Assembly (NCBI GenBank): GCA_965249555.1
Contig: OZ252243.1
Location: 128,001 to 192,000, forward strand
DNA from: Nitrosopumilus sp.
Lineage (GTDB): Archaea; Thermoproteota; Nitrososphaeria; Nitrososphaerales; Nitrosopumilaceae
DNA: 64,000 nt
Reading direction: 5' to 3'
This document shows positions 13,911 through 23,785 of the stretch, piece by piece (within the stretch, counting starts at the first letter, position 1; each line of letters begins with the position of its first letter). The position numbers and the translations under genes are program-made. The notes under the pieces were generated by a model. The model worked only from the letters and a program-made list of their open reading frames with translations. It was not told where the DNA came from and did not search any database.

Positions 13911-15566
13911 TTACTCAGACGGCCCTAGCTGTTTTTTGTATTTTGTAATATCGGATTCTTCAACTTTTACAAACAAAGGAGACGCATCACCTAATACATG
14001 ACCAGAAGAAATGCCTAAAACAGAAATATCATTCCAAGAAAATTCATTGACATTCCCATCAAGACCTAATTGGTTCCAAATTTTTTGAGCAGATTTTGGA
14101 AGAAATGGGAAAAGTACAATTGCCAGGCTTCGAACAGCATTAACTGAAAGATATACACAATTTGTAGTTCCAGGACCATTGTTCCAAGGTTCTTTGTGTT
14201 GGAAATATTGGTTAAAGAAGGACGAAAATTCCATTACTTTCTTCAAAGCCCTGTCAAGATGATTCTGTTCCATAAGTGAGCCTACATCAGTTGCGAGTGT
14301 TTTGATTTTTTGTTCTGCATCAGAGTCTTTCTCATCAAAGGATTCTATTTCAGGAATTTTTCCATCAAATGCTTTTTTAGTAAATCCTAAAGCACGATTA
14401 ACAAAGTTGCCAAGATTTGCAATCAATTCAGAATTGATTCTAGTGGTAAAATCATTCCAATCAAAATTCAAATCATCCTGAGAATACGGATTAATAGATA
14501 CAAGATAATATCTAAGATAATCTGCAGGATAGTATTCTAAGAATTCTTTTAGGCCAATGTACCAATTTCGGCTTTTAGAAATTTTCTTTGCCTGAAGTGT
14601 TAGATGGCCACGAGTTGGAATGTAATCAGGTAATTTGTACTCACTATTTATCCCCAATCTCATTGCAGGCAAGAAAAGAAAATGATGATACACGATATCC
14701 TTTCCAATAAAATGATAAATGTCAGCAGAATTCCAAAATTCTTTTCCATCAATTCCTTTATCGTTTAGAAATTTTATTGCAGTTGAAATGTATGCCAAAT
14801 GGTTATCAAACCACCCATAGAAGACTTTGTCCTTGGAATCATCAAGCGGTACTGGGACACCCCAAGAGATGTCTCGAGTGATATCCCAATCAATTAAACC
14901 AGATTTAATCCAGTTTTGAACATATTTTTTGACATCTTTTTGGAGATGTTCATTTTCATCTAGCCATTTAGACAAAGAGTCACTAAAATTTGTGAGTCTG
15001 AAAAAATAATGGTTTGTTTTTTCTTTAGTTGGAGGTTGACCGCAAAGAGAACATTTTGGATTACTAATTTCATCAGGAACACGACCGCAACTTTCACAAA
15101 GATCAGAGTATTGATCTTCGGCATTACAATAAGGACATGTACCTTTGACGTATCTGTCAGGTAAGAATTTCTTATCATTATTACAATAAAATTGAATAAT
15201 TTCTTTCTCATAGATGTGTCCAGCATCATTTAATTTTTTGAAGACTTGCTGAACAAATTCTATATTTTCAGCAGAGCTAGTCTTGTAAAAATAATCAAAT
15301 TCAATGTCAAATGCAGTAAAATCGTCATAGTCACGCTTATTCCAATGAGCAACATATTCAGCAGGAGTCTTGCCCTCTTTTTCTGATTGAATTAAGATAG
15401 GAGTTCCAAAATCATCAGATGCACAAACATAGTAAACCTCGACACCATTTAGTTTTAAAAATCTGGTAGTAACATCTGCAGGAAGATATGTTGATGCAAC
15501 ATGTCCCAAATGAATCTCTCCATTTGCATAAGGTAAGGCACTTGTAATGATGGCTCTTTTGTTCAT
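13911..15566 (-). CDS. metG: Methionyl-tRNA synthetase
   Basis: LPYANGEIHLGH (HIGH), zinc knuckle CPYC/CESC, GKDI, KISKS (KMSKS). Confidence 0.97.
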   Translation of the reverse strand: MNKRAIITSALPYANGEIHLGHVASTYLPADVTTRFLKLNGVEVYYVCASDDFGTPILIQSEKEGKTPAEYVAHWNKRDYDDFTAFDIEFDYFYKTSSAENIEFVQQVFKKLNDAGHIYEKEIIQFYCNNDKKFLPDRYVKGTCPYCNAEDQYSDLCESCGRVPDEISNPKCSLCGQPPTKEKTNHYFFRLTNFSDSLSKWLDENEHLQKDVKKYVQNWIKSGLIDWDITRDISWGVPVPLDDSKDKVFYGWFDNHLAYISTAIKFLNDKGIDGKEFWNSADIYHFIGKDIVYHHFLFLPAMRLGINSEYKLPDYIPTRGHLTLQAKKISKSRNWYIGLKEFLEYYPADYLRYYLVSINPYSQDDLNFDWNDFTTRINSELIANLGNFVNRALGFTKKAFDGKIPEIESFDEKDSDAEQKIKTLATDVGSLMEQNHLDRALKKVMEFSSFFNQYFQHKEPWNNGPGTTNCVYLSVNAVRSLAIVLFPFLPKSAQKIWNQLGLDGNVNEFSWNDISVLGISSGHVLGDASPLFVKVEESDITKYKKQLGPSE

Positions 15567-15593
15567 TAATAATGCTCAAGAGCAGTATTGAGG

Positions 15594-15608
15594 TTAAGAA
15601 GTTTTAGA
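15594..15608 (+). repeat. 15-bp direct repeat TTAAGAAGTTTTAGA, copy 1 (copy 2 at 19321-19335)
   Basis: Exact match read in the sequence; lies ~28-42 bp upstream of the metG start, where BRE/TATA would be. Confidence 0.8.
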
Positions 15609-15792
15609 TGAAATTAATACCCAAGTTAAATTAATTTTTTATAAATAATTTAGGATTTTAGTTAACTTGACTGTTCATACAGTTTGTGGAGTTTTAGACA
15701 AAATTAACACTCAGGTCAAATCCCTATGAGAGAATTAAACAAAATCAAAATTCACTAAAATTCCTAGCTTTGAGATATGTTTTGCGTGTAAA

Positions 15793-16785
15793 TTAATTGG
15801 TTTTGAGAGGATTTTCAAATATTGGGTTTACAGGATAACTGAACAGATATGTTCGTCCCTTACCTTGAGAAGCTGGAAAGGTTTTATCACCTTCTGGCAA
15901 TTTTTGTTTCCATTGATAAGGTTTGGGATATAAAATTTGAACTTCTGGATGACGTAAGGCAAATTCAGAAAATGCAAGACATTGAATTTTTGGTCCTCCA
16001 TTAACTAAACAGATATCATATTCATTGTTATATCTCTCATAAATCTGTTCTAAATTAGCTAATGTCTCTTTAGGCCTCAATGTTGGAACTCTGAAAAAAT
16101 CAGATTTCTCTATCAGATCATAGCATTGACGAATTGTAATTCCGTTCCATTGTTCTCTTTGTTCATCATCAGAATATTCTGCTATTGTAATCAATTTATC
16201 AGGTTCCCATTCTTCAACAACAGATCCTATACGTCTTGATTCCCATCCTAAAAATAAAATCATCAAAATCTTTTTTGATTGGTCAGGAATTCCAGGATTT
16301 GTAGGCATTATTATAATGTCTTCTAGTCCTTGAGCAAAATTCATTGTATAAGCAGCTGGTTCTGAATAAAGAATATGTGTCTTGATGTTATTTTGGACAC
16401 AAACATTCAAAATTGAATAAAGGAACAATCGGGTAAAGGAGGTAGTATCTATAAGTATACTTTTGGCATCTTGTAAATGACTTTCTAACAATTGATCAAA
16501 AAGAAAATGATCTGTTGGTCTGTGTTCAAAAACTGATTGGTTATCACAAATTTTAGATATAATATTTTGAATTTTTTCCAGATTCTGTTTATTGCTTTCA
16601 TAAAGTTCAGGTTCAGAGGGTCGGAAAAGATTGATTATAGTTTTTTTGAATTTGGTAACATCACTAATTTTTTCAATTCCAGCTAAACTTCTATCTTCAA
16701 ATCCCGCTGAGCATATGAATAAATCATAAGAATCAAGCAGACTTAGATTTGGTTCCTTAGAGATTATACCTTGATTCAGACTCAT
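15793..16785 (-). CDS. Uncharacterised Rossmann-like (possibly CARF-like) partner of the ATPase-SIR2 protein
   Basis: Two similar halves (LFICSAGFEDRS...IDTTSFTR...ILYSEP; ILFLGWESRR...LVNGGPK...ILYPKP); 4-bp overlap with upstream gene. Confidence 0.6.
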   Translation of the reverse strand: MSLNQGIISKEPNLSLLDSYDLFICSAGFEDRSLAGIEKISDVTKFKKTIINLFRPSEPELYESNKQNLEKIQNIISKICDNQSVFEHRPTDHFLFDQLLESHLQDAKSILIDTTSFTRLFLYSILNVCVQNNIKTHILYSEPAAYTMNFAQGLEDIIIMPTNPGIPDQSKKILMILFLGWESRRIGSVVEEWEPDKLITIAEYSDDEQREQWNGITIRQCYDLIEKSDFFRVPTLRPKETLANLEQIYERYNNEYDICLVNGGPKIQCLAFSEFALRHPEVQILYPKPYQWKQKLPEGDKTFPASQGKGRTYLFSYPVNPIFENPLKTN

Positions 16786-19088
16786 TTTTCCATTACTCCC
16801 ATGTGTATGGCATCAATTAGTGTTTCCCCCTTTATCGATAATGGTATAATTCCTTTAGCTTTTAACACACCCAATTTATCCTCTGAATCAATAATTGTTG
16901 CAGCATACGAAGTAAGAGGCAAGTCTCCTTGAATATCTTTTATTAAGTGAAATATTGTCTTGAAGTCAAGATCTTCCATACTATAACCCAAAAATAAGAA
17001 ATGCTTTCTGGCAAGACTATTTTTTAGTGAATTCACTAATAATGGTCTGGTTTTTTCCAAAGAAATAGAATCATCATTAGTAATCACAAACATATCAGGA
17101 TGATCAAAATCTCCATGCATTTTGTAAATCAAAGGTTTTCTATTTCCAGCTAAAGTGATATGATCATCTCTAACAATTTTTTCTGTACTCACAAACTTCT
17201 TTTTGAATTCATCTTCAATAGAACTATCCCAATTAGTAGTATAGATTTCATCTAAATTAAAATCTGTAAGTTTTTTATAAGATTTTGACTCTCTCGTTTT
17301 AGATTTTTCTAAAACATTTCGGATATATTTGATAAGATCTCCTCGTTCTCTTTGAACTAAAACTCTTTCAGATATTGTTGGTAAATCATCTCCAACATAT
17401 TCAATGTTAAAATGATTTGCAATTTTTTGTGCCAAAACAGTTCCAGTAGGATAACCCAATTCTGTAGATAGGCCTGAACCTACAAAAATCCCTAAATCAT
17501 TATTTTTTGCATGATCAACTATTTCCTGAACAACACTCAAGTACGGATCTAAGGTTTCCAATAATTTTGTAGGTTGAATTTCACCTTCTAACATTATTTT
17601 AATTCCTGAAATTACACTTCTTCGATCAAATAATTTGTCAATGTCAGTATATGACAATTCACATACTTGATGTGTCTGTAAGGGAAGATCAAAATATGGC
17701 AATAATGCATTTGAAAGAGTAATTGATAGAAGTTTAAATCCACCACGTGAATATCTTTCTACAGCTGGAGCCATCAGATAATTTTTTTTCATTGCTAAAA
17801 AAATGAATTTTAGAGATTCATCGGATAGATTTTCTGGATCTTTAATTCCTATTTGTAGATAATTACGCTGTGTTTCTTTAAGATAATTTTTAAAAAGTAG
17901 TCCAATTTTTAAAATTATTGAGCGAAATACGTAAGGAGAAATACGAGGTATAAACTCAATTCCATCCATCAACTGACTAGCAAATTTTTTGATTGCAATA
18001 TTTTGAGTATCCATAGAAATAACACCACGTCCATTCCATTCTTTAAAAACTGCATGTAACATTTTCAGAAAAATTCTTACATTTCCAGAGGATAGTAAAA
18101 CTAAATTATCCAAACCAGAATAATTATTCTCTTGAGATGTTGGAGGTTCTGAAGGATTATAAACAAGAAATTTGTCAACATCGTATCCAAATGTTTTCAA
18201 TCTTTTATTTGCAATAATTTTAAAAAAATCTCTAACATCGTTGAATTCTGTAGAATTTGGGGTAAGATTATGAGTTCCGATGTTTATAGTGATAAAATCA
18301 CTTAGTAGATTGATGGATTTCCCAAATTCTTCTCGTTGAGTATTGAGTTCTGGTGGCAGTGTCGCAACTTTAAAAATCGGTTTTCTAACAGATACTATTT
18401 CACTAATAACTTGTTTTTGAAAAAAAGATAGTTCTTGATATTCATCTAACAATATCACAATCCATTTATTTTTAAAATCAGCAATAGATTCAGTTAAAAC
18501 TTCTTGTAATTCGGATAAAAAAGAACTAATTGTCAATATTGAATTGAAATCTTCATTAATATTTTTCGAGTGATTCCTTATTTCTTCTCTAACCATATCT
18601 TTTACTTCAAGAAATTTATTTTTATTTTCAATTTCTAAAATACTGCAAATTTCTTTGCATACTGTTTGTTCTTCGAAAGGATCTATTACAATCAATGGGT
18701 AATGTTTCATTCGTTCTAAATCTCTTAGAACAAGTTCACATGCAGTTAAATTAAATAAATGTGTAAATTTTTTTTGCCATAATTCTTCAGGGTTTCCATT
18801 TTTATCTAAAGTTTCTTTAACTGTTCCAAAATAATGTTCAGTACCACGAATGTAAATTCCTAAATTGTTTTTGTCATAGTCAATTAATGAATCAGATTTG
18901 AACCTTTCAATTTGAATTCGAGTTGATAAATATTGTAAAATCATAGATTTGCCAGACCCTCGTGGCCCCATTATGTATACTGTATCTTGTTCTGTTACAG
19001 ATTCAGATTTTTTTGAAGGTGTGAAAAAAATTTTAATTTCTTCTTCTCTTAATCTTTCAGTTGGAATAGATCTTACATCAATACCCAT
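16782..19088 (-). CDS. ORC/CDC6-like P-loop ATPase fused to C-terminal SIR2-like domain
   Basis: Walker A GPRGSGKS, Walker B ILLDE, SSGNVR; SIR2-like motifs FVGSGLS, YTTNWD, KMHGD, FLGYSMED. Confidence 0.85.
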   Translation of the reverse strand: MGIDVRSIPTERLREEEIKIFFTPSKKSESVTEQDTVYIMGPRGSGKSMILQYLSTRIQIERFKSDSLIDYDKNNLGIYIRGTEHYFGTVKETLDKNGNPEELWQKKFTHLFNLTACELVLRDLERMKHYPLIVIDPFEEQTVCKEICSILEIENKNKFLEVKDMVREEIRNHSKNINEDFNSILTISSFLSELQEVLTESIADFKNKWIVILLDEYQELSFFQKQVISEIVSVRKPIFKVATLPPELNTQREEFGKSINLLSDFITINIGTHNLTPNSTEFNDVRDFFKIIANKRLKTFGYDVDKFLVYNPSEPPTSQENNYSGLDNLVLLSSGNVRIFLKMLHAVFKEWNGRGVISMDTQNIAIKKFASQLMDGIEFIPRISPYVFRSIILKIGLLFKNYLKETQRNYLQIGIKDPENLSDESLKFIFLAMKKNYLMAPAVERYSRGGFKLLSITLSNALLPYFDLPLQTHQVCELSYTDIDKLFDRRSVISGIKIMLEGEIQPTKLLETLDPYLSVVQEIVDHAKNNDLGIFVGSGLSTELGYPTGTVLAQKIANHFNIEYVGDDLPTISERVLVQRERGDLIKYIRNVLEKSKTRESKSYKKLTDFNLDEIYTTNWDSSIEDEFKKKFVSTEKIVRDDHITLAGNRKPLIYKMHGDFDHPDMFVITNDDSISLEKTRPLLVNSLKNSLARKHFLFLGYSMEDLDFKTIFHLIKDIQGDLPLTSYAATIIDSEDKLGVLKAKGIIPLSIKGETLIDAIHMGVMEK

Positions 19089-19320
19089 GTTAATAAAAAT
19101 AATAAGTTCTCACTATAAATGAGATCTATACATTCAACAATGGATATGAATTCAAAATTGAACATGATAGAGATTTTAACTAAAGTAAAAAGCCACTTAA
19201 GAGAATACGACATATTTATTATAGGCGATCTTGTTTTTACAAATTCACGTGTAAAAACAATTAGAAACAGATTTTGAATATCTAAAAACACCAGTCACTT
19301 AACTTGATTGATCATTCAAA

Positions 19321-19335
19321 TTAAGAAGTTTTAGA
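19321..19335 (+). repeat. 15-bp direct repeat TTAAGAAGTTTTAGA, copy 2
   Basis: Exact match to 15594-15608. Confidence 0.8.
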
Positions 19336-19444
19336 CTAACGCTGTATAATGTGTCGTTCAATGTATTTGATAGGCATTGTTTCGGAACAGCACCCGCAAG
19401 TTATCAAACGATTTTACCTTGGAAGAAATTATCTAACAATTTTA

Positions 19445-19723
19445 TCATCTACTAATATTTTCAAAATAAGAATCAGAAAAAGTAGCAGACATCATAAAGT
19501 CATTATAAAATTTATGTAAAAATGAAGGATTTGCTGAAAAATAATCATCAATTAAAATAAGATCGTTTACAGAAATTCCATCAACATCAGAAACAACGTA
19601 TTTCAATAATATTTCTACAGTTTCAGATCTACCAGATATAGAAGAATCCTTATGAAGTAATTTTTGAACAGTGGCGAGATGGTCTAAAATCCCATCAGAT
19701 AAAACACATTCACATATAGCCAC
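19445..19723 (-). CDS. Hypothetical protein
   Basis: 92-aa ORF filling the gap downstream of ahcY; no motif recognised. Confidence 0.5.
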   Translation of the reverse strand: MAICECVLSDGILDHLATVQKLLHKDSSISGRSETVEILLKYVVSDVDGISVNDLILIDDYFSANPSFLHKFYNDFMMSATFSDSYFENISR

Positions 19724-19791: not shown

Positions 19792-21033
19792 TTACCAACT
19801 ACTGGCATATTTTACCTGTTCAGCAGTAAGTTTATCGATTTTTACATTCATTGCCGCTAGAGCATCAACTGCAACTTGCATATCAATTTCTTCTGGAACA
19901 TTAATGATTTTATTTTCCATTTTTTTGTGGTTTTTAAGAATATACAAAACAGAGAGAATTTGATTTGAGAAGGATTGCGCCATTACTTCTGGAGGATGTC
20001 CTTCTGCTGCAACTAAATTTGCAAGACGGCCCTGACCAATCAGATAAACTTTTTTTCCATTTTTCAAAGTGCATTCATCAAGGTTTGGTCTTACTTCTCT
20101 AACAGATTTTGATTTCTTTAGTAAGAATGCACTATCAATTTCTACATCAAAGTGACCAACATTTCCCATAATGGCTCCATTTTTCATTTGTAAGATGTGC
20201 TCTTTTCTAATTACACCAGTCATACCAGTACATGTAACGAAGATATCGCCAATCTTTGCAGCTTGTGCCATTGGCATTACTTCAAATCCATCCATATGAG
20301 CTTCAAGAGCTTTAATTGGATCTATCTCAGTGACAATTATTTTTGAACCCATTCCATGACATCTTGATGCAACGCCACGACCAACCCAACCATATCCAAC
20401 TACTACCACGCGTTTTGATGCCAAAAGTAAATTCATGGCACGGAGATACCCATCAACAGTGCTTTGTCCTGTACCATATCGATTATCAAACATGTGTTTT
20501 GTATATGCTTCATTAACTAAAATTACAGGATATCGAAGTTGTCCCTTATTCTCTACTGCTCTAATTCGAGTAACACCTGCAGTGGTTTCTTCAGTTGCTC
20601 CAAGAATTTTCATGTTCTTGAATCTTTTATCAAAATGAGCTTTGATATTCATGTCAGCTCCATCATCAGTTAGAATGGTTGGTTTGTGTTTCAATACTTG
20701 ATCAATACACCAATCATATTCTTTGACAGATTGTCCATGCCATGCATAAACATGGATTCCTTGAGATGCCAAAAATGCAGAGATGTTATCCTGAGTAGTT
20801 AATGGATTGCCACCACAACATGCAACAGTTGCACCTAGTTCTTTGGCCCCAATTAGTAAAACTGAAGTCTCTTTTGTGATATGCAAACAAAATCCAAGGG
20901 TTATACCCTTTAGTGGTTTTGATTTTTTAAAGCGATTAATGGTATTATCTAGAATTTGCATATGAGATCTAGCCCACTCATAAGACAATTTGCCTTCTTT
21001 GATCAATTTTTGGCTAGTCTTTACTTTACTCAA
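19792..21033 (-). CDS. ahcY: S-adenosylhomocysteine hydrolase
   Basis: CLHITKET, EETTAG, FDNRYGTGQS, GYGWVGRG, GHFDVEID, AEGHP. Confidence 0.97.
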   Translation of the reverse strand: MSKVKTSQKLIKEGKLSYEWARSHMQILDNTINRFKKSKPLKGITLGFCLHITKETSVLLIGAKELGATVACCGGNPLTTQDNISAFLASQGIHVYAWHGQSVKEYDWCIDQVLKHKPTILTDDGADMNIKAHFDKRFKNMKILGATEETTAGVTRIRAVENKGQLRYPVILVNEAYTKHMFDNRYGTGQSTVDGYLRAMNLLLASKRVVVVGYGWVGRGVASRCHGMGSKIIVTEIDPIKALEAHMDGFEVMPMAQAAKIGDIFVTCTGMTGVIRKEHILQMKNGAIMGNVGHFDVEIDSAFLLKKSKSVREVRPNLDECTLKNGKKVYLIGQGRLANLVAAEGHPPEVMAQSFSNQILSVLYILKNHKKMENKIINVPEEIDMQVAVDALAAMNVKIDKLTAEQVKYASSW

Positions 21034-21667: not shown

Positions 21668-23785
21668 TTGGGATATAATGATAATAAAATGAACATAACT
21701 ACAATAAACATCATAAAACACTTGGCGAATGGGGTTTCTGATGTCCAAACTCTAATGGACATCACAAAAATCAAAGAATGGCAAATTAATTCACAATTAA
21801 AAGATCTAACTCAATTTGGTTATGTTGTAAGAGAAGGAAATACTGTAAAATTAAAAGATGAATTGAAACCTGTTACCATTAGAGAATTAACAAAAAAAAT
21901 CAACATTGAAAAAATTCTACGTGGTGCAAACGAAACAATATTTTCATATCTTACAGAACCAATATCTGTCAACGAAATAGTTTTGAAAGCTGAATTATCG
22001 CCATCTACTGTATACAGAGCTATTTCTGATTTTGAATCAGTTGGAGCAATTACTAGAACTGGGGATAAAATTAATGTTAACAGTTCTAATGAACAACTAG
22101 TACTTTTAGCAAATTCGTTAAATGCTGAACGAAAAAACTTGTATGAACCTAATGCCGAAATTTTGTTCAAAGATTCAACTAAGATTCTCAAGAGAGTACA
22201 AAAAGGTAAAATTACAGAAGGAGAACTTACTGGATTTTCTTTGTTCACTGAATATGGAATTGATTATGATATACATTATGATTATTACATTAAACAGGAA
22301 GATTCGTTAGATCTTCAACATGTTCTAATTCATGCAATATTTGATGCTCAAAGAAATATGAATAAACAAGGAATGATGATGGCCATAATATTTTATCTAG
22401 CACATAAAGAAAAGATGGATGTTCTTAATCTACGAAGAATCGCAGAAACATTTCAAATTGCACATGTATGGATAGATGTAGAAGGATACATTAGAAATAA
22501 TGAACTCAAAAATCCTGCCTTGTTCTTACCTAGAGATGAGTTTATGGAAAAAACCAATTTATATGAAATTCCAACTACTCTGTATGTTTTACCAGAAGGA
22601 TATCCTAAACTATTTGAAGACATTGGGAAAAACTTGCAAAGAAAAACCAAAGCATTTGTTATTGGTGGGGAGAATATGAGAATTAAGGGACTAAAACCAC
22701 GAACAAAAGATATAGACATTGTTGTTGAAAATGAAGAAGATTACAACTCAATTATGGATGCATTAACAAAACTTGGTTATCAGCCAAAAGGCAATGTTGA
22801 TTTTTCCACAGAAGATTTGAGACTTTATCCATCAATAATAATGGAGCATACTAATCGAAGCAGAATTGATTTGTACACTAAAAAAATTCTAAGAACTTTA
22901 TCTCTATCGTCAAAAATGATTTCTCGTGCAGATTTATCTGATTTTGGTAATTTACGCCTAGGAATACTGAAAAATGAGGATGTTTTTCTTCTTAAATCGG
23001 TTACTAGTAGAGAAGGCGATGTCCAAGATATGGCGGCATTAGTAAACATGAGTTATGCTGGAGATGGTCAATTTAGACAGACTGATTTTGATTGGAACAT
23101 TGTATGGGATGAGATAAATGAACAAGAAAAAGAATCTCATTTACAAAGCTTTAGTGAAATCATACGAGACAATATTGAATGGTTAGTACAACAAACTGGA
23201 ATAACTCCTCCAATTCGTAATAAGTTACAAAGATTTGTTTTAGATCAACAAATTAAAAAATTACTTCGAGAAGGAATGATTTCAATAAAAGAAGTAGTTG
23301 AACAATTGATCGACGAAAATAATTCTGAACAAACTATAAGAAATCGAATTAATGCATTAGTCAAAATAGATGTAGTTAAGAAAGAATCTCAAAACAATGA
23401 AATTCTAATATGTTTTTCAAATAATTTATTTTATCCTGAAAATACTTCAAAAATCACTTCTAATAATTTAGATTCATATCTTCAATGGAGATTTACAACC
23501 AGAGAAGGTCCAACTCCACTTAAGCTTGAACAAGTTGCAGACGAATTAATATCATTAGGTTATGAAACAATTGAAGAAATAGACAATATTGTAAACAAAA
23601 TGTTAAATGGATTACATGAATATGAAAAAGAATACTATCAAATAGATAAAAAACTTTCTACTAAAAGTAGGATAAAACAAGTTGGTGCTATGAGGATATG
23701 CATAGGATTATCTAATCCAAAATTTGGCAAAAATGGCACTACCAATTTCTATATAGCAAACTTTGAAAAATTCTCAAAAATTTAG
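21668..23785 (+). CDS. Multi-wHTH + DUF6036/AbiEii-like nucleotidyltransferase fusion
   Basis: Two N-terminal wHTH (e.g. SVNEIV...LSPSTVYRAI); Pol-beta-type motif VIGG...TKDIDIV; LLKSVTSREGDVQD; a further wHTH near aa 530-575. Confidence 0.72.
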   Translation: MGYNDNKMNITTINIIKHLANGVSDVQTLMDITKIKEWQINSQLKDLTQFGYVVREGNTVKLKDELKPVTIRELTKKINIEKILRGANETIFSYLTEPISVNEIVLKAELSPSTVYRAISDFESVGAITRTGDKINVNSSNEQLVLLANSLNAERKNLYEPNAEILFKDSTKILKRVQKGKITEGELTGFSLFTEYGIDYDIHYDYYIKQEDSLDLQHVLIHAIFDAQRNMNKQGMMMAIIFYLAHKEKMDVLNLRRIAETFQIAHVWIDVEGYIRNNELKNPALFLPRDEFMEKTNLYEIPTTLYVLPEGYPKLFEDIGKNLQRKTKAFVIGGENMRIKGLKPRTKDIDIVVENEEDYNSIMDALTKLGYQPKGNVDFSTEDLRLYPSIIMEHTNRSRIDLYTKKILRTLSLSSKMISRADLSDFGNLRLGILKNEDVFLLKSVTSREGDVQDMAALVNMSYAGDGQFRQTDFDWNIVWDEINEQEKESHLQSFSEIIRDNIEWLVQQTGITPPIRNKLQRFVLDQQIKKLLREGMISIKEVVEQLIDENNSEQTIRNRINALVKIDVVKKESQNNEILICFSNNLFYPENTSKITSNNLDSYLQWRFTTREGPTPLKLEQVADELISLGYETIEEIDNIVNKMLNGLHEYEKEYYQIDKKLSTKSRIKQVGAMRICIGLSNPKFGKNGTTNFYIANFEKFSKI

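Follow-up and report, generated by a model that had tools for sequence, protein, structure and literature searches.

A SIR2-bearing ORC/CDC6-like ATPase and its CARF6-type partner form a discretely inserted candidate defence cassette in a Nitrosopumilus genome

In a stretch of 64,000 nucleotides from a Nitrosopumilus sp. genome (assembly GCA_965249555.1, contig OZ252243.1, positions 128,001 to 192,000 of the forward strand), referred to here as the window, two overlapping minus-strand open reading frames (ORFs) lie between metG (13911..15566) and ahcY (19792..21033). The upstream gene encodes a 768-aa protein that joins a P-loop ATPase of the ORC-CDC6-like family to a C-terminal SIR2 domain, and the downstream gene encodes a 330-aa protein composed of two CARF-like halves. 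Both genes have a GC content of 0.28-0.31, slightly under that of their neighbours, and they share the four nucleotides at 16782-16785. A TATA-like element ahead of the ATPase start, lying within the inserted DNA described below, is a possible promoter of the cassette's own from which a leaderless transcript could arise (Table 1).

On sequence grounds, the C-terminal domain of the 768-aa protein belongs to the NADase type represented by ThsA, DSR2, and KomC. The Pfam family PF13289 (SIR2_2) was matched at aa 614-749 with 75.4 bits against a cut-off of 24.5, and the characteristic motifs GSGLS (537-541), TTNWD (617-621), HGD (658-660), and GYS (701-703) were all present. The ThsA models of PADLOC covered aa 519-722 (1.6e-31) at profile positions 9-214 of 478, that is, in their SIR2 part only. 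A profile constructed from 26 fusion sequences retrieved ThsA (7uxt, 1.3e-41; 6lhx, 4e-37), KomC (8zsf, 1.4e-33), and DSR2 (8k98, 3.6e-29) from the PDB, and structural comparison by Foldseek gave target-normalised TM scores of 0.74-0.80 for the SIR2 domains of DSR2 and KomC and of 0.46 for EcThsA. The Asn/His pair of SIR2 domains is catalytic, and its counterparts here, N619 and H658, were invariant in the 26 fusion sequences and aligned to N112 and H152 of ThsA. Mutants named in PDB titles (DSR2 H171A and KomC H146N) also concern histidines, which may correspond to H658. No sirtuin deacetylase family of Pfam matched the 768-aa protein at E<=1. The region aa 506-768 is free of cysteine, and the SIR2 part therefore lacks a zinc module of the kind that has a role in sirtuin deacetylases. 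By analogy with the solved defence enzymes, we infer that the domain would hydrolyse NAD+.

The remainder of the 768-aa protein matched PF24389 (ORC-CDC6-like) with 170.3 bits, far above the gathering cut-off of 27, over aa 11-304 and a second stretch; in the genome-wide search, the profile was likewise matched in both halves (positions 9-309 and 411-566). Secondary structure prediction suggested a P-loop core, a helical insert after strand 2, a lid carrying the SSGNVR motif (aa 333-338), and a winged-helix-like end. Across 42 members of the PF24389 family, G41, G44, G46, K47, Y79, D215, E216, Q224, R296, R338, and Q362 were conserved, with K47, D215, E216, and R338 invariant or at least 90% conserved, and D215 was invariant in both fusion alignments that were checked, one of them comprising the 26 sequences. 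The AlphaFold model of the 768-aa protein had a pLDDT of 83.0 and a pTM of 0.60. When the same protein was submitted to PADLOC, the SIR2 part alone was matched, besides weak P-loop-level matches to GajB and mad8. In four orthologues that belong to one subclade (P0015, P0016, P0017, and P0019), the Walker B glutamate E216 is replaced by asparagine (LLDNY or LLDNH), and an insert of ~20 aa precedes the SIR2 domain; judging from this substitution, these versions may bind ATP without hydrolysing it.

The 330-aa partner was identified as a CARF6-type protein by the PADLOC model CARF6--CARF_CARF_CARF (PDLC01917; 7.3e-27, aa 18-291 on profile positions 14-284 of 308), and 14 more CARF models of PADLOC matched it. 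Its AlphaFold model (pLDDT 88.4, pTM 0.88) displayed two Rossmann-like halves with six strands each. The best whole-chain Foldseek matches were tandem USP-like domains (TM 0.24-0.28), and the local matches were the CARF domains of Can2 (8bao, 7bdv), Csa3 (6w11), and Csm6, with an rmsd of 2.6-3.8 A over 116-124 columns. A search of the ESM Atlas with the partner returned bacterial clusters only. According to the accessible part of a published analysis of these domains, the CARF signature has S/T where strand 1 ends, and [DN]X[ST]XXX[RK] follows strand 4 (PMC4012209). The N-terminal half of the partner fits this signature, since S26 ends strand 1 and D113-T-T115-S-F-T-R119 follows strand 4, and the C-terminal half retains only N262 and K266. 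Residues E30, R32, D113, R185, and K266 were kept in partners of as little as 18-27% identity.

Structure prediction supports binding of the CARF6 partner to the ATPase. The modelled complex of ATPase aa 1-510 and the partner scored 0.75 against 0.01 for the best control, a score that expresses model confidence; among solved complexes, 58 of 80 attained this level, as did 2 of 110 mismatched pairs, counts that hold only roughly because custom alignments were used. The separate runs shared at least 81% of contacts, with a partner pLDDT of at least 80. On the partner side, the predicted interface comprises aa 153-170, the linker between the two halves and the most conserved segment of the partner, and on the ATPase side it comprises residues 79-89 after strand 2 (with the conserved Y79, H85, and F87), the helical insert, and the lid. 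By residue number, the predicted contacts lie at 153-170, 184-193, 257-259, and 283-293 of the partner and at 79-89, 115-122, 167-175, and 376-387 of the ATPase. The original prediction, made by a model from the DNA letters alone, had described a coupled operon with a 4-bp overlap, a set of ATPase and SIR2 motifs with the SIR2 domain at the C terminus, and a partner with two similar beta-alpha halves. The ORF list bears out the overlap, the motifs were all recovered in the translation and the alignments, the Asn/His pair is intact, and the modelled partner does have two like halves of the double-Rossmann type, which PADLOC assigns to CARF6. The placement of the ATPase in the ORC/CDC6-like family is upheld by the PF24389 score, and the proposed physical coupling of the two proteins agrees with the predicted complex.

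The cassette is a discrete and recent insertion. Among 29 loci of the same genus, the gap between ahcY and metG measured only 34-59 bp in 20; a 92-aa gene lay between the two in 2, other inserts were found in 6, and a contig ended at the site in 1. The nearest relative, whose metG is 95% identical, carries ahcY, the 92-aa gene, and metG in this order and represents an empty site, and alignment of its intergenic DNA to the window revealed a clean insertion. A perfect 15-nt word that occurs once each in the empty sites of two genomes (G558 and G557) flanks the insert on both sides here, and in the entire 2.23-Mb genome this word occurs exactly twice, only at the insert ends. The inserted position between metG and ahcY, as originally proposed, was thereby confirmed and sharpened by the 20 tight junctions and the empty site. 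According to the ORF list, the insert holds nothing besides the two genes and the DNA flanking them, and no recombinase is encoded in it; no other copy of its ends was found in the genome, and no terminal inverted repeat was detected at the ends (383 of 500 shuffles scored as high). Casposons, as characterised in the accessible part of their description, possess terminal inverted repeats and an element-borne Cas1, and their target-site duplications have a median length of 15 bp (PMC4046053). An origin as a casposon or miniature casposon was rejected on account of the missing inverted repeat, the lack of a further copy of the ends, and the location of both Cas1 genes of the genome in its CRISPR loci, of type I-G and I-B. 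In other genomes, the orthologous cassettes do not sit beside metG or ahcY.

Table 1. Positions of the cassette genes, their functional parts, and the boundaries of the inserted DNA in the window
Feature	Position	Strand	Basis
ATPase-SIR2 fusion gene, 768 aa (stop codon 16782-16784)	16782..19088	-	ORF, PF24389, PF13289, PADLOC, orthologues
ORC-CDC6-like ATPase module, aa 1-500	17589..19088	-	profile match, secondary structure, conserved residues
Walker A GPRGSGKS (aa 41-48; K47; basic R43 inside the P-loop)	18945..18968	-	translation, alignment
Walker B LLDE (aa 213-216; D215, E216)	18441..18452	-	translation, alignment
SIR2 NADase-type domain, aa 519-768	16785..17534	-	PDB profile matches, Foldseek
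N619 codon (TTNWD), aligned to ThsA N112	17232..17234	-	profile alignment, translation
H658 codon (HGD), aligned to ThsA H152	17115..17117	-	profile alignment, translation
Tandem CARF-like (CARF6) partner gene, 330 aa	15793..16785	-	PADLOC, AlphaFold, Foldseek, 20 orthologues
Left copy of perfect 15-bp direct repeat (target-site-type duplication)	15594..15608	+	empty-site alignment, genome word count
Right copy of 15-bp direct repeat	19321..19335	+	empty-site alignment, genome word count
Inserted DNA between the repeats, 3,712 bp (3,727 bp with one repeat)	15609..19320	.	empty-site alignment
TATA-like TTTATA, 26-31 nt upstream of the ATPase start, within the insert	19114..19119	-	sequence reading

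The full-length fusion and its partner are shared with related archaea, and an ATPase of the family was accompanied by a CARF6-like gene at every locus examined. A word-indexed search retrieved 20 orthologues that span the whole fusion (42-69% identity), including proteins of Nitrosarchaeum and Ca. Nitrosopumilus koreensis, and 23 relatives of the partner, including proteins of Nitrosotalea and a Cenarchaeum symbiont. Thirteen contigs apparently appeared in both match tables, a sign that the genes may move as a pair. The distribution is patchy, the fusion being present in 3 of 201 genomes of the family, the window's own included, and a PF24389 match above the cut-off being found in 7 of the 401 genomes searched in the phylum. 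At all nine loci examined, each with a full-length ATPase of the family (G441, a 108-aa fragment of 28.3 bits, was excluded from the count), a CARF6-like gene lay directly downstream of the ATPase gene, and PADLOC independently confirmed CARF6 at two of them (G132, 1.3e-151; G422, 2.5e-86). The effector varied among these nine: a SIR2 domain is attached to the C terminus of the ATPase in G000 (the window's own genome), G188, G044, and L009; a Ser/Thr kinase occupies the N terminus in G010 and G382; an N-terminal domain with no family match is found in G096; and a separate upstream gene encodes a PRTase-CE protein in G132 and an HD-CE protein in G422. In Ca. Nitrosopumilus koreensis AR1, the partner orthologue (P0047/NKOR_08030) has only 252 aa and covers 68% of the query; its shortness, and a locus tag that does not directly neighbour the tag of the ATPase gene (NKOR_08040), suggest that the gene may be split or truncated.

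A broader HMMER search with the ATPase part against 1.84 billion representatives returned 237 at E<=0.001, of which the best 150 were analysed. In this set, SIR2 was fused to 26 ATPases, at the C terminus in 9 and at the N terminus in 17, and P0024, found by the word-indexed search, provided an additional N-terminal case. A common N-terminal domain was present in 23 of the 150; a further domain, which PADLOC names TIR in one member, was shared by 8; and Mrr, calcineurin-like, ParA-like, fused PRTase-CE, and AdoHcyase-NAD-like domains appeared as single cases. A five-member cluster (P0137/P0154/P0164/P0185/P0191) was excluded as an artefact of partial phmmer alignment, because PF24389 covers P0137 end to end, and the extension cluster P0024_C/P0132_C/P0166_C and the singleton P0115_C were left out of the effector tally. 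In a midpoint-rooted FastTree phylogeny of 119 ATPase regions, with SH-like support values and long-branch warnings, the C-terminal SIR2 fusions formed one clade (7 rows, support 99) apart from the clade of N-terminal fusions, indicating that SIR2 was captured at least twice. The C-terminal clade has so far been confined to Nitrosopumilaceae-like archaea and some metagenomic relatives. The same ATPase family was also detected on 152 plasmids, 130 of them from Klebsiella and 133 typed as conjugative, and on both of the plasmids inspected (L093 and L094, from Cupriavidus basilensis and Klebsiella pneumoniae) the operon consisted of genes for an N6-methylase, a PRTase-CE-like protein, the ATPase, and a CARF6-like protein; all four were annotated as hypothetical or were mis-named. 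Genes adjacent to the relatives included defence-type ones, namely Hachiman HamA with its helicase (G010) and DruA (G382), as well as methylases of the C5 (G132, G422) and MT-A70 (G188) types, an AlwI-like nuclease (G096), an HNH protein (G044), and a DUF4145 protein (L009). The earlier suggestion that homologues be surveyed for exchanged effectors was thus rewarded with SIR2, kinase, PRTase-CE, and HD-CE versions. Its accompanying statements that the ATPase and partner pair was not recognised with a fused SIR2 and not in Thaumarchaeota do not stand: SIR2 occurs in the 26 representatives counted above, genomes of the Nitrosopumilaceae type hold ~20 orthologous pairs, and the same genus includes relatives equipped with other effectors.

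Comparison with known systems indicated that the parts of the cassette are already catalogued, and that the version with a C-terminal SIR2 effector, the minimal two-gene form, and the exactly delimited insertion with its empty site are what distinguishes it. The closest entries are catalogued cassettes of an effector, a PF24389 ATPase, and CARF6 (PADLOC models PDLC01910-01923), which agree in the ATPase family, in a CARF6 gene that is directly downstream and often overlapping, and in modularity. These cassettes often add a DNA methylase together with PRTase-CE (PF24390) or HD-CE (PF24391), as on the Klebsiella and Cupriavidus plasmids; unlike them, the present one carries SIR2 at the ATPase C terminus and comprises a 3.7-kb insert without a methylase or a separate effector. 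Thoeris ThsA provides the closest solved SIR2 domains, with the same Asn/His pair, but the cassette has neither a SLOG domain nor a ThsB/TIR gene, and an ATPase with CARF6 takes the place of the regulator. DSR2, KomC, and other stand-alone defence sirtuins share the SIR2 fold and the NADase-type motifs and differ in their sensing parts; KomC is a SIR2 protein solved with KomB as KomBC, which we take to be the Kongming system. SIR2-STAND proteins of the Avs5 type likewise join SIR2 to a switch ATPase with a P-loop, one that falls within the broad ORC/Cdc6-STAND assemblage. Unlike those proteins, however, the fusion has its SIR2 domain at the C terminus, lacks sensor repeats, and is accompanied by an obligatory separate CARF6 subunit. 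In the 768-aa protein, the Pfam NACHT model reached 11.9 bits against a cut-off of 26.7, and no Avs model of PADLOC matched at E<=1. Membership in Thoeris, DSR2, or the Avs-type SIR2-STAND group was therefore rejected, given the SIR2-only ThsA match, the missing ThsB, the 20.6 bits for the NCBIfam Dsr2 equivalog against a cut-off of 1400, and the NACHT score.

CARF domains are also known to gate oligomerising AAA+ ATPases, as in RtcR. In the architecture given in the accessible part of the 2014 analysis, RtcR resembles the cassette in joining a CARF-type sensor to an AAA+ ATPase outside type III CRISPR (PMC4012209); it is a single-chain sigma-54 activator with an NtrC-type ATPase, whereas here the parts are separate proteins and the predicted output is an NADase. 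The same source, as far as it was available, describes fusions of a Zn-ribbon, Ser/Thr kinase, AAA+, CARF, and wHTH whose P-loop contains an arginine (Makarova et al. 2014, PMC4012209). Such kinase-AAA+-CARF fusions (PADLOC CARF6--CARF_STK_AAA, PDLC01925) have the same type of ATPase as the cassette and are alike in the basic P-loop residue and in the CARF6-type domain, and the PADLOC model matched the partner at profile positions 1042-1175 and the ATPase of a relative at 336-729; the cassette differs from them in its two genes, in SIR2 standing for the kinase, and in the absence of a wHTH after the CARF halves. HINPO (HEPN, inactive NTase, ParA, ORC/CDC6 ATPase) likewise combines an ORC-CDC6/STAND-clade ATPase, the proposed sensor of invaders, with a second nucleotide-sensing part, but has other partners and another effector, and CARF6 and SIR2 are not described in the accessible part of the preprint (10.64898/2026.10.19.760177). 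A ParA-ATPase fusion (P0128) is present among the best 150 of the 237 family representatives. No full-length match of the cassette proteins to a named, experimentally tested defence system was returned by PADLOC or NCBIfam, and the literature searched, in which the 2020 CARF classification was not covered, yielded no description or test of the ATPase-SIR2 and CARF pair. The label "undescribed", given in the original prediction, is overstated, as PF24389, the PADLOC CARF6 models, and the kinase-AAA+-CARF fusion of 2014 had already been catalogued.

Taken together, we consider the cassette, with a probability of roughly 0.6, to be a modular and horizontally mobile defence-type system composed of a CARF6 sensor or gate, an ATPase switch, and a plug-in SIR2 effector, and its function is probably defensive. 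The strict linkage of the ATPase to CARF6, along with the interchangeable effectors, argues for these two proteins as the core that senses and switches, with SIR2 as the output. A defence role is in line with the patchy occurrence of the cassette, with the exchange of effectors, and with the defence genes adjoining the relatives. The CARF6 protein would act as a small-molecule sensor or gate, and the ORC/CDC6-like P-loop ATPase as a nucleotide-dependent switch and assembly platform. At rest, CARF6 bound to the helical insert near strand 2 and to the lid would block assembly of the ATPase. Infection would bring a cue, either a nucleotide-like ligand that occupies the CARF6 pocket or foreign DNA that contacts the ATPase and its winged helix, or the two together, after which the ATP-bound ATPase would oligomerise and bring the SIR2 domains together; their hydrolysis of NAD+ would stop the cell and the virus alike, resulting in abortive infection. 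The proposal of a resting hold and an ATP-driven assembly was drawn from analogy to the solved defence sirtuins and to CARF-gated AAA+ proteins such as RtcR, and a nucleotide-like ligand, the sense in which the partner regulates the ATPase, and an antiviral effect are inferred as well.

Besides the limits attached above to the complex score, several observations weigh against this reading. With regard to the ATPase, a profile search of the PDB with this half of the protein gave P-loop-level matches only (ORC4 at E=0.008 over 26 residues), and the rows printed by Foldseek for the whole model were all SIR2; as no solved sequence relative extends beyond the P-loop, the tentative placement in the ORC/CDC6 fold rests on the Pfam name and the predicted arrangement of core, lid, and winged helix. 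The asparagine in place of the Walker B glutamate in four orthologues implies that hydrolysis may be dispensable. With regard to the sensor, the Pfam model CARF_Card1 reached only 14 bits against a cut-off of 24.6, and R119 of the CARF signature was not conserved beyond the close clade. In the genome, which is 99.97% complete and carries two CRISPR loci (type I-G and I-B), Cas10 was not recognised (TIGR02577, no match; TIGR02578, 18.5 bits against 170), and the SMODS (CD-NTase) model attained 22 bits against a cut-off of 26.5. With no Cas10, SMODS below its threshold, and CRISPR of type I only, a cyclic oligoadenylate is unlikely to be the ligand. The ahcY/metG site of the window has housekeeping neighbours and is no defence island, and the idea that the junction serves as such an island in the genus was rejected, as the inserts of six relatives hold no defence genes. 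Moreover, literature searches found no experimental test of any member of the family.

An alternative explanation reverses the role of the partner: the ATPase alone would sense DNA or a viral protein, and the CARF6-like protein would bind no signal. It would act as a stoichiometric inhibitor or a brake of the antitoxin kind, or else switch the system off by degrading a messenger, and the system would fire once the brake is lost or displaced. The predicted interface is compatible with this, as it covers the insert and the lid of the ATPase, the area where oligomerisation or DNA contact is expected, and so are the failure to find a messenger synthase in the genome and the 4-bp overlap with the partner downstream, an arrangement seen in many toxin-antitoxin-like pairs. 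In its accessible part, the HINPO preprint further proposes that ORC-CDC6-like components sense the DNA of selfish elements and notes that CARF/SAVED domains can be signal-terminating nucleases (10.64898/2026.10.19.760177). However, the pocket-type residues E30, R32, D113, R185, and K266 are retained in distant partners, which is more than a pure protein-protein brake would need, and the motif that the CARF signature places after strand 4 is fully preserved in the N-terminal half; we therefore regard such a brake as unlikely. The cassette might instead mainly serve a mobile element, through addiction, exclusion, or plasmid competition, and not the antiviral defence of the host. The insertion without a recombinase and with a 15-bp target-type duplication, the sister operon on plasmids that are mostly typed as conjugative (133 of 152), and the patchy distribution are all in keeping with service to an element, yet the insert in G000 holds two genes only, its ends are uncopied elsewhere in the genome, and relatives adjoin anti-phage systems, e.g., Hachiman and DruA. 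Since exclusion and defence against viruses are compatible with each other, and in view of these points, we give this possibility little weight. That an ORC-like ATPase brings a sirtuin deacetylase to DNA as a regulator of chromatin or replication is suggested by a likeness at the level of names (ORC-CDC6-like and "SIR2"), and is very improbable: the SIR2 part is PF13289 and matches the ThsA/DSR2/KomC NADases, the deacetylase search and the missing cysteines point the same way, the fusion is a recent insertion present in just 3 of 201 family genomes, and in relatives the place of SIR2 is taken by kinase, TIR-like, HD, or PRTase domains.

A more far-reaching and decidedly unlikely possibility is that the ATPase and CARF6 form a universal chassis that operates without a dedicated messenger synthase, its pocket reading the nucleotide debris of infection and its methylase-linked versions marking the host DNA beforehand. 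The debris might be, for instance, modified mononucleotides or cyclic-phosphate fragments from host DNA or RNA degraded by the virus, and binding of such a ligand would free the ORC-like ATPase to assemble and to fire whichever effector is plugged in. This idea was suggested by the recurring methylase in the sister operons and by a 2026 preprint that, in its accessible part, reports that methylated dAMP, arising when host DNA is degraded, sets off a defence module. If true, it would define a CARF pathway outside CRISPR and CBASS that extends from marine ammonia-oxidising archaea to Klebsiella plasmids.

Several further features of the insertion site and the genome were recorded. The ahcY/metG junction is variable, since 6 of the 29 same-genus genomes (L071-L076) bear other inserts of 2.3 kb to >12 kb, which carry DDE transposases, a histidine kinase, NAD synthase, Nre, binding proteins, and a ParB-like protein. 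The present insert contains, near its left boundary, a degenerate copy (~41 nt) of the right junction (15662-15702 versus 19299-19339, 78%) and a second degenerate copy (15681-15721 versus 15591-15631, 76%), which could be a trace of an earlier insertion or of cassette exchange. The 92-aa ORF between ahcY and the cassette (19445-19723, minus strand) is a conserved gene outside the insert with no family match; it is 70% identical in the cassette-free nearest relative and 38% identical in another. On the far side of ahcY, a 705-aa multi-wHTH protein (21668-23785, plus strand) gave family matches at the HTH level only, and its gene may be a second strain-specific insertion, because the gap between ahcY and the next ORF is only ~600 bp in the nearest relative. 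Two related cassettes from same-genus genomes, G132 (L086) and G096 (L088), adjoin a gene for a class I aminoacyl-tRNA synthetase, and the present one adjoins metG; this adjacency may be a coincidence or may reflect a preferred insertion site. Elsewhere in the genome, the CRISPR arrays have ~47 and ~61 repeats at 632-646 kb and 1,609-1,625 kb, the type I-G cas genes encode a Cas4/Cas1 fusion, Cas3g, Cas8g, Csb1, and Csb2, and a third regularly spaced repeat region (2,136,395-2,155,179) contains 12 copies of a 20-mer.

Among the main outputs of prokaryotic immunity are the SIR2 NADases, each known example of which has, to our knowledge, a different trigger. The cassette described here couples such a domain to an ORC-like ATPase and a stand-alone tandem CARF protein as its sensor pair, and both archaea and conjugative plasmids of bacteria carry this pair with effectors of the kinase, TIR-like, HD, and PRTase types. 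Identifying its ligand would explain the whole family and would also reveal roles of CARF domains outside CRISPR. The compact form of the cassette, together with the contrast between the insert-bearing genome and the empty site of the nearest relative, makes it a convenient test case, and ammonia-oxidising archaea have few candidate defence modules besides it.

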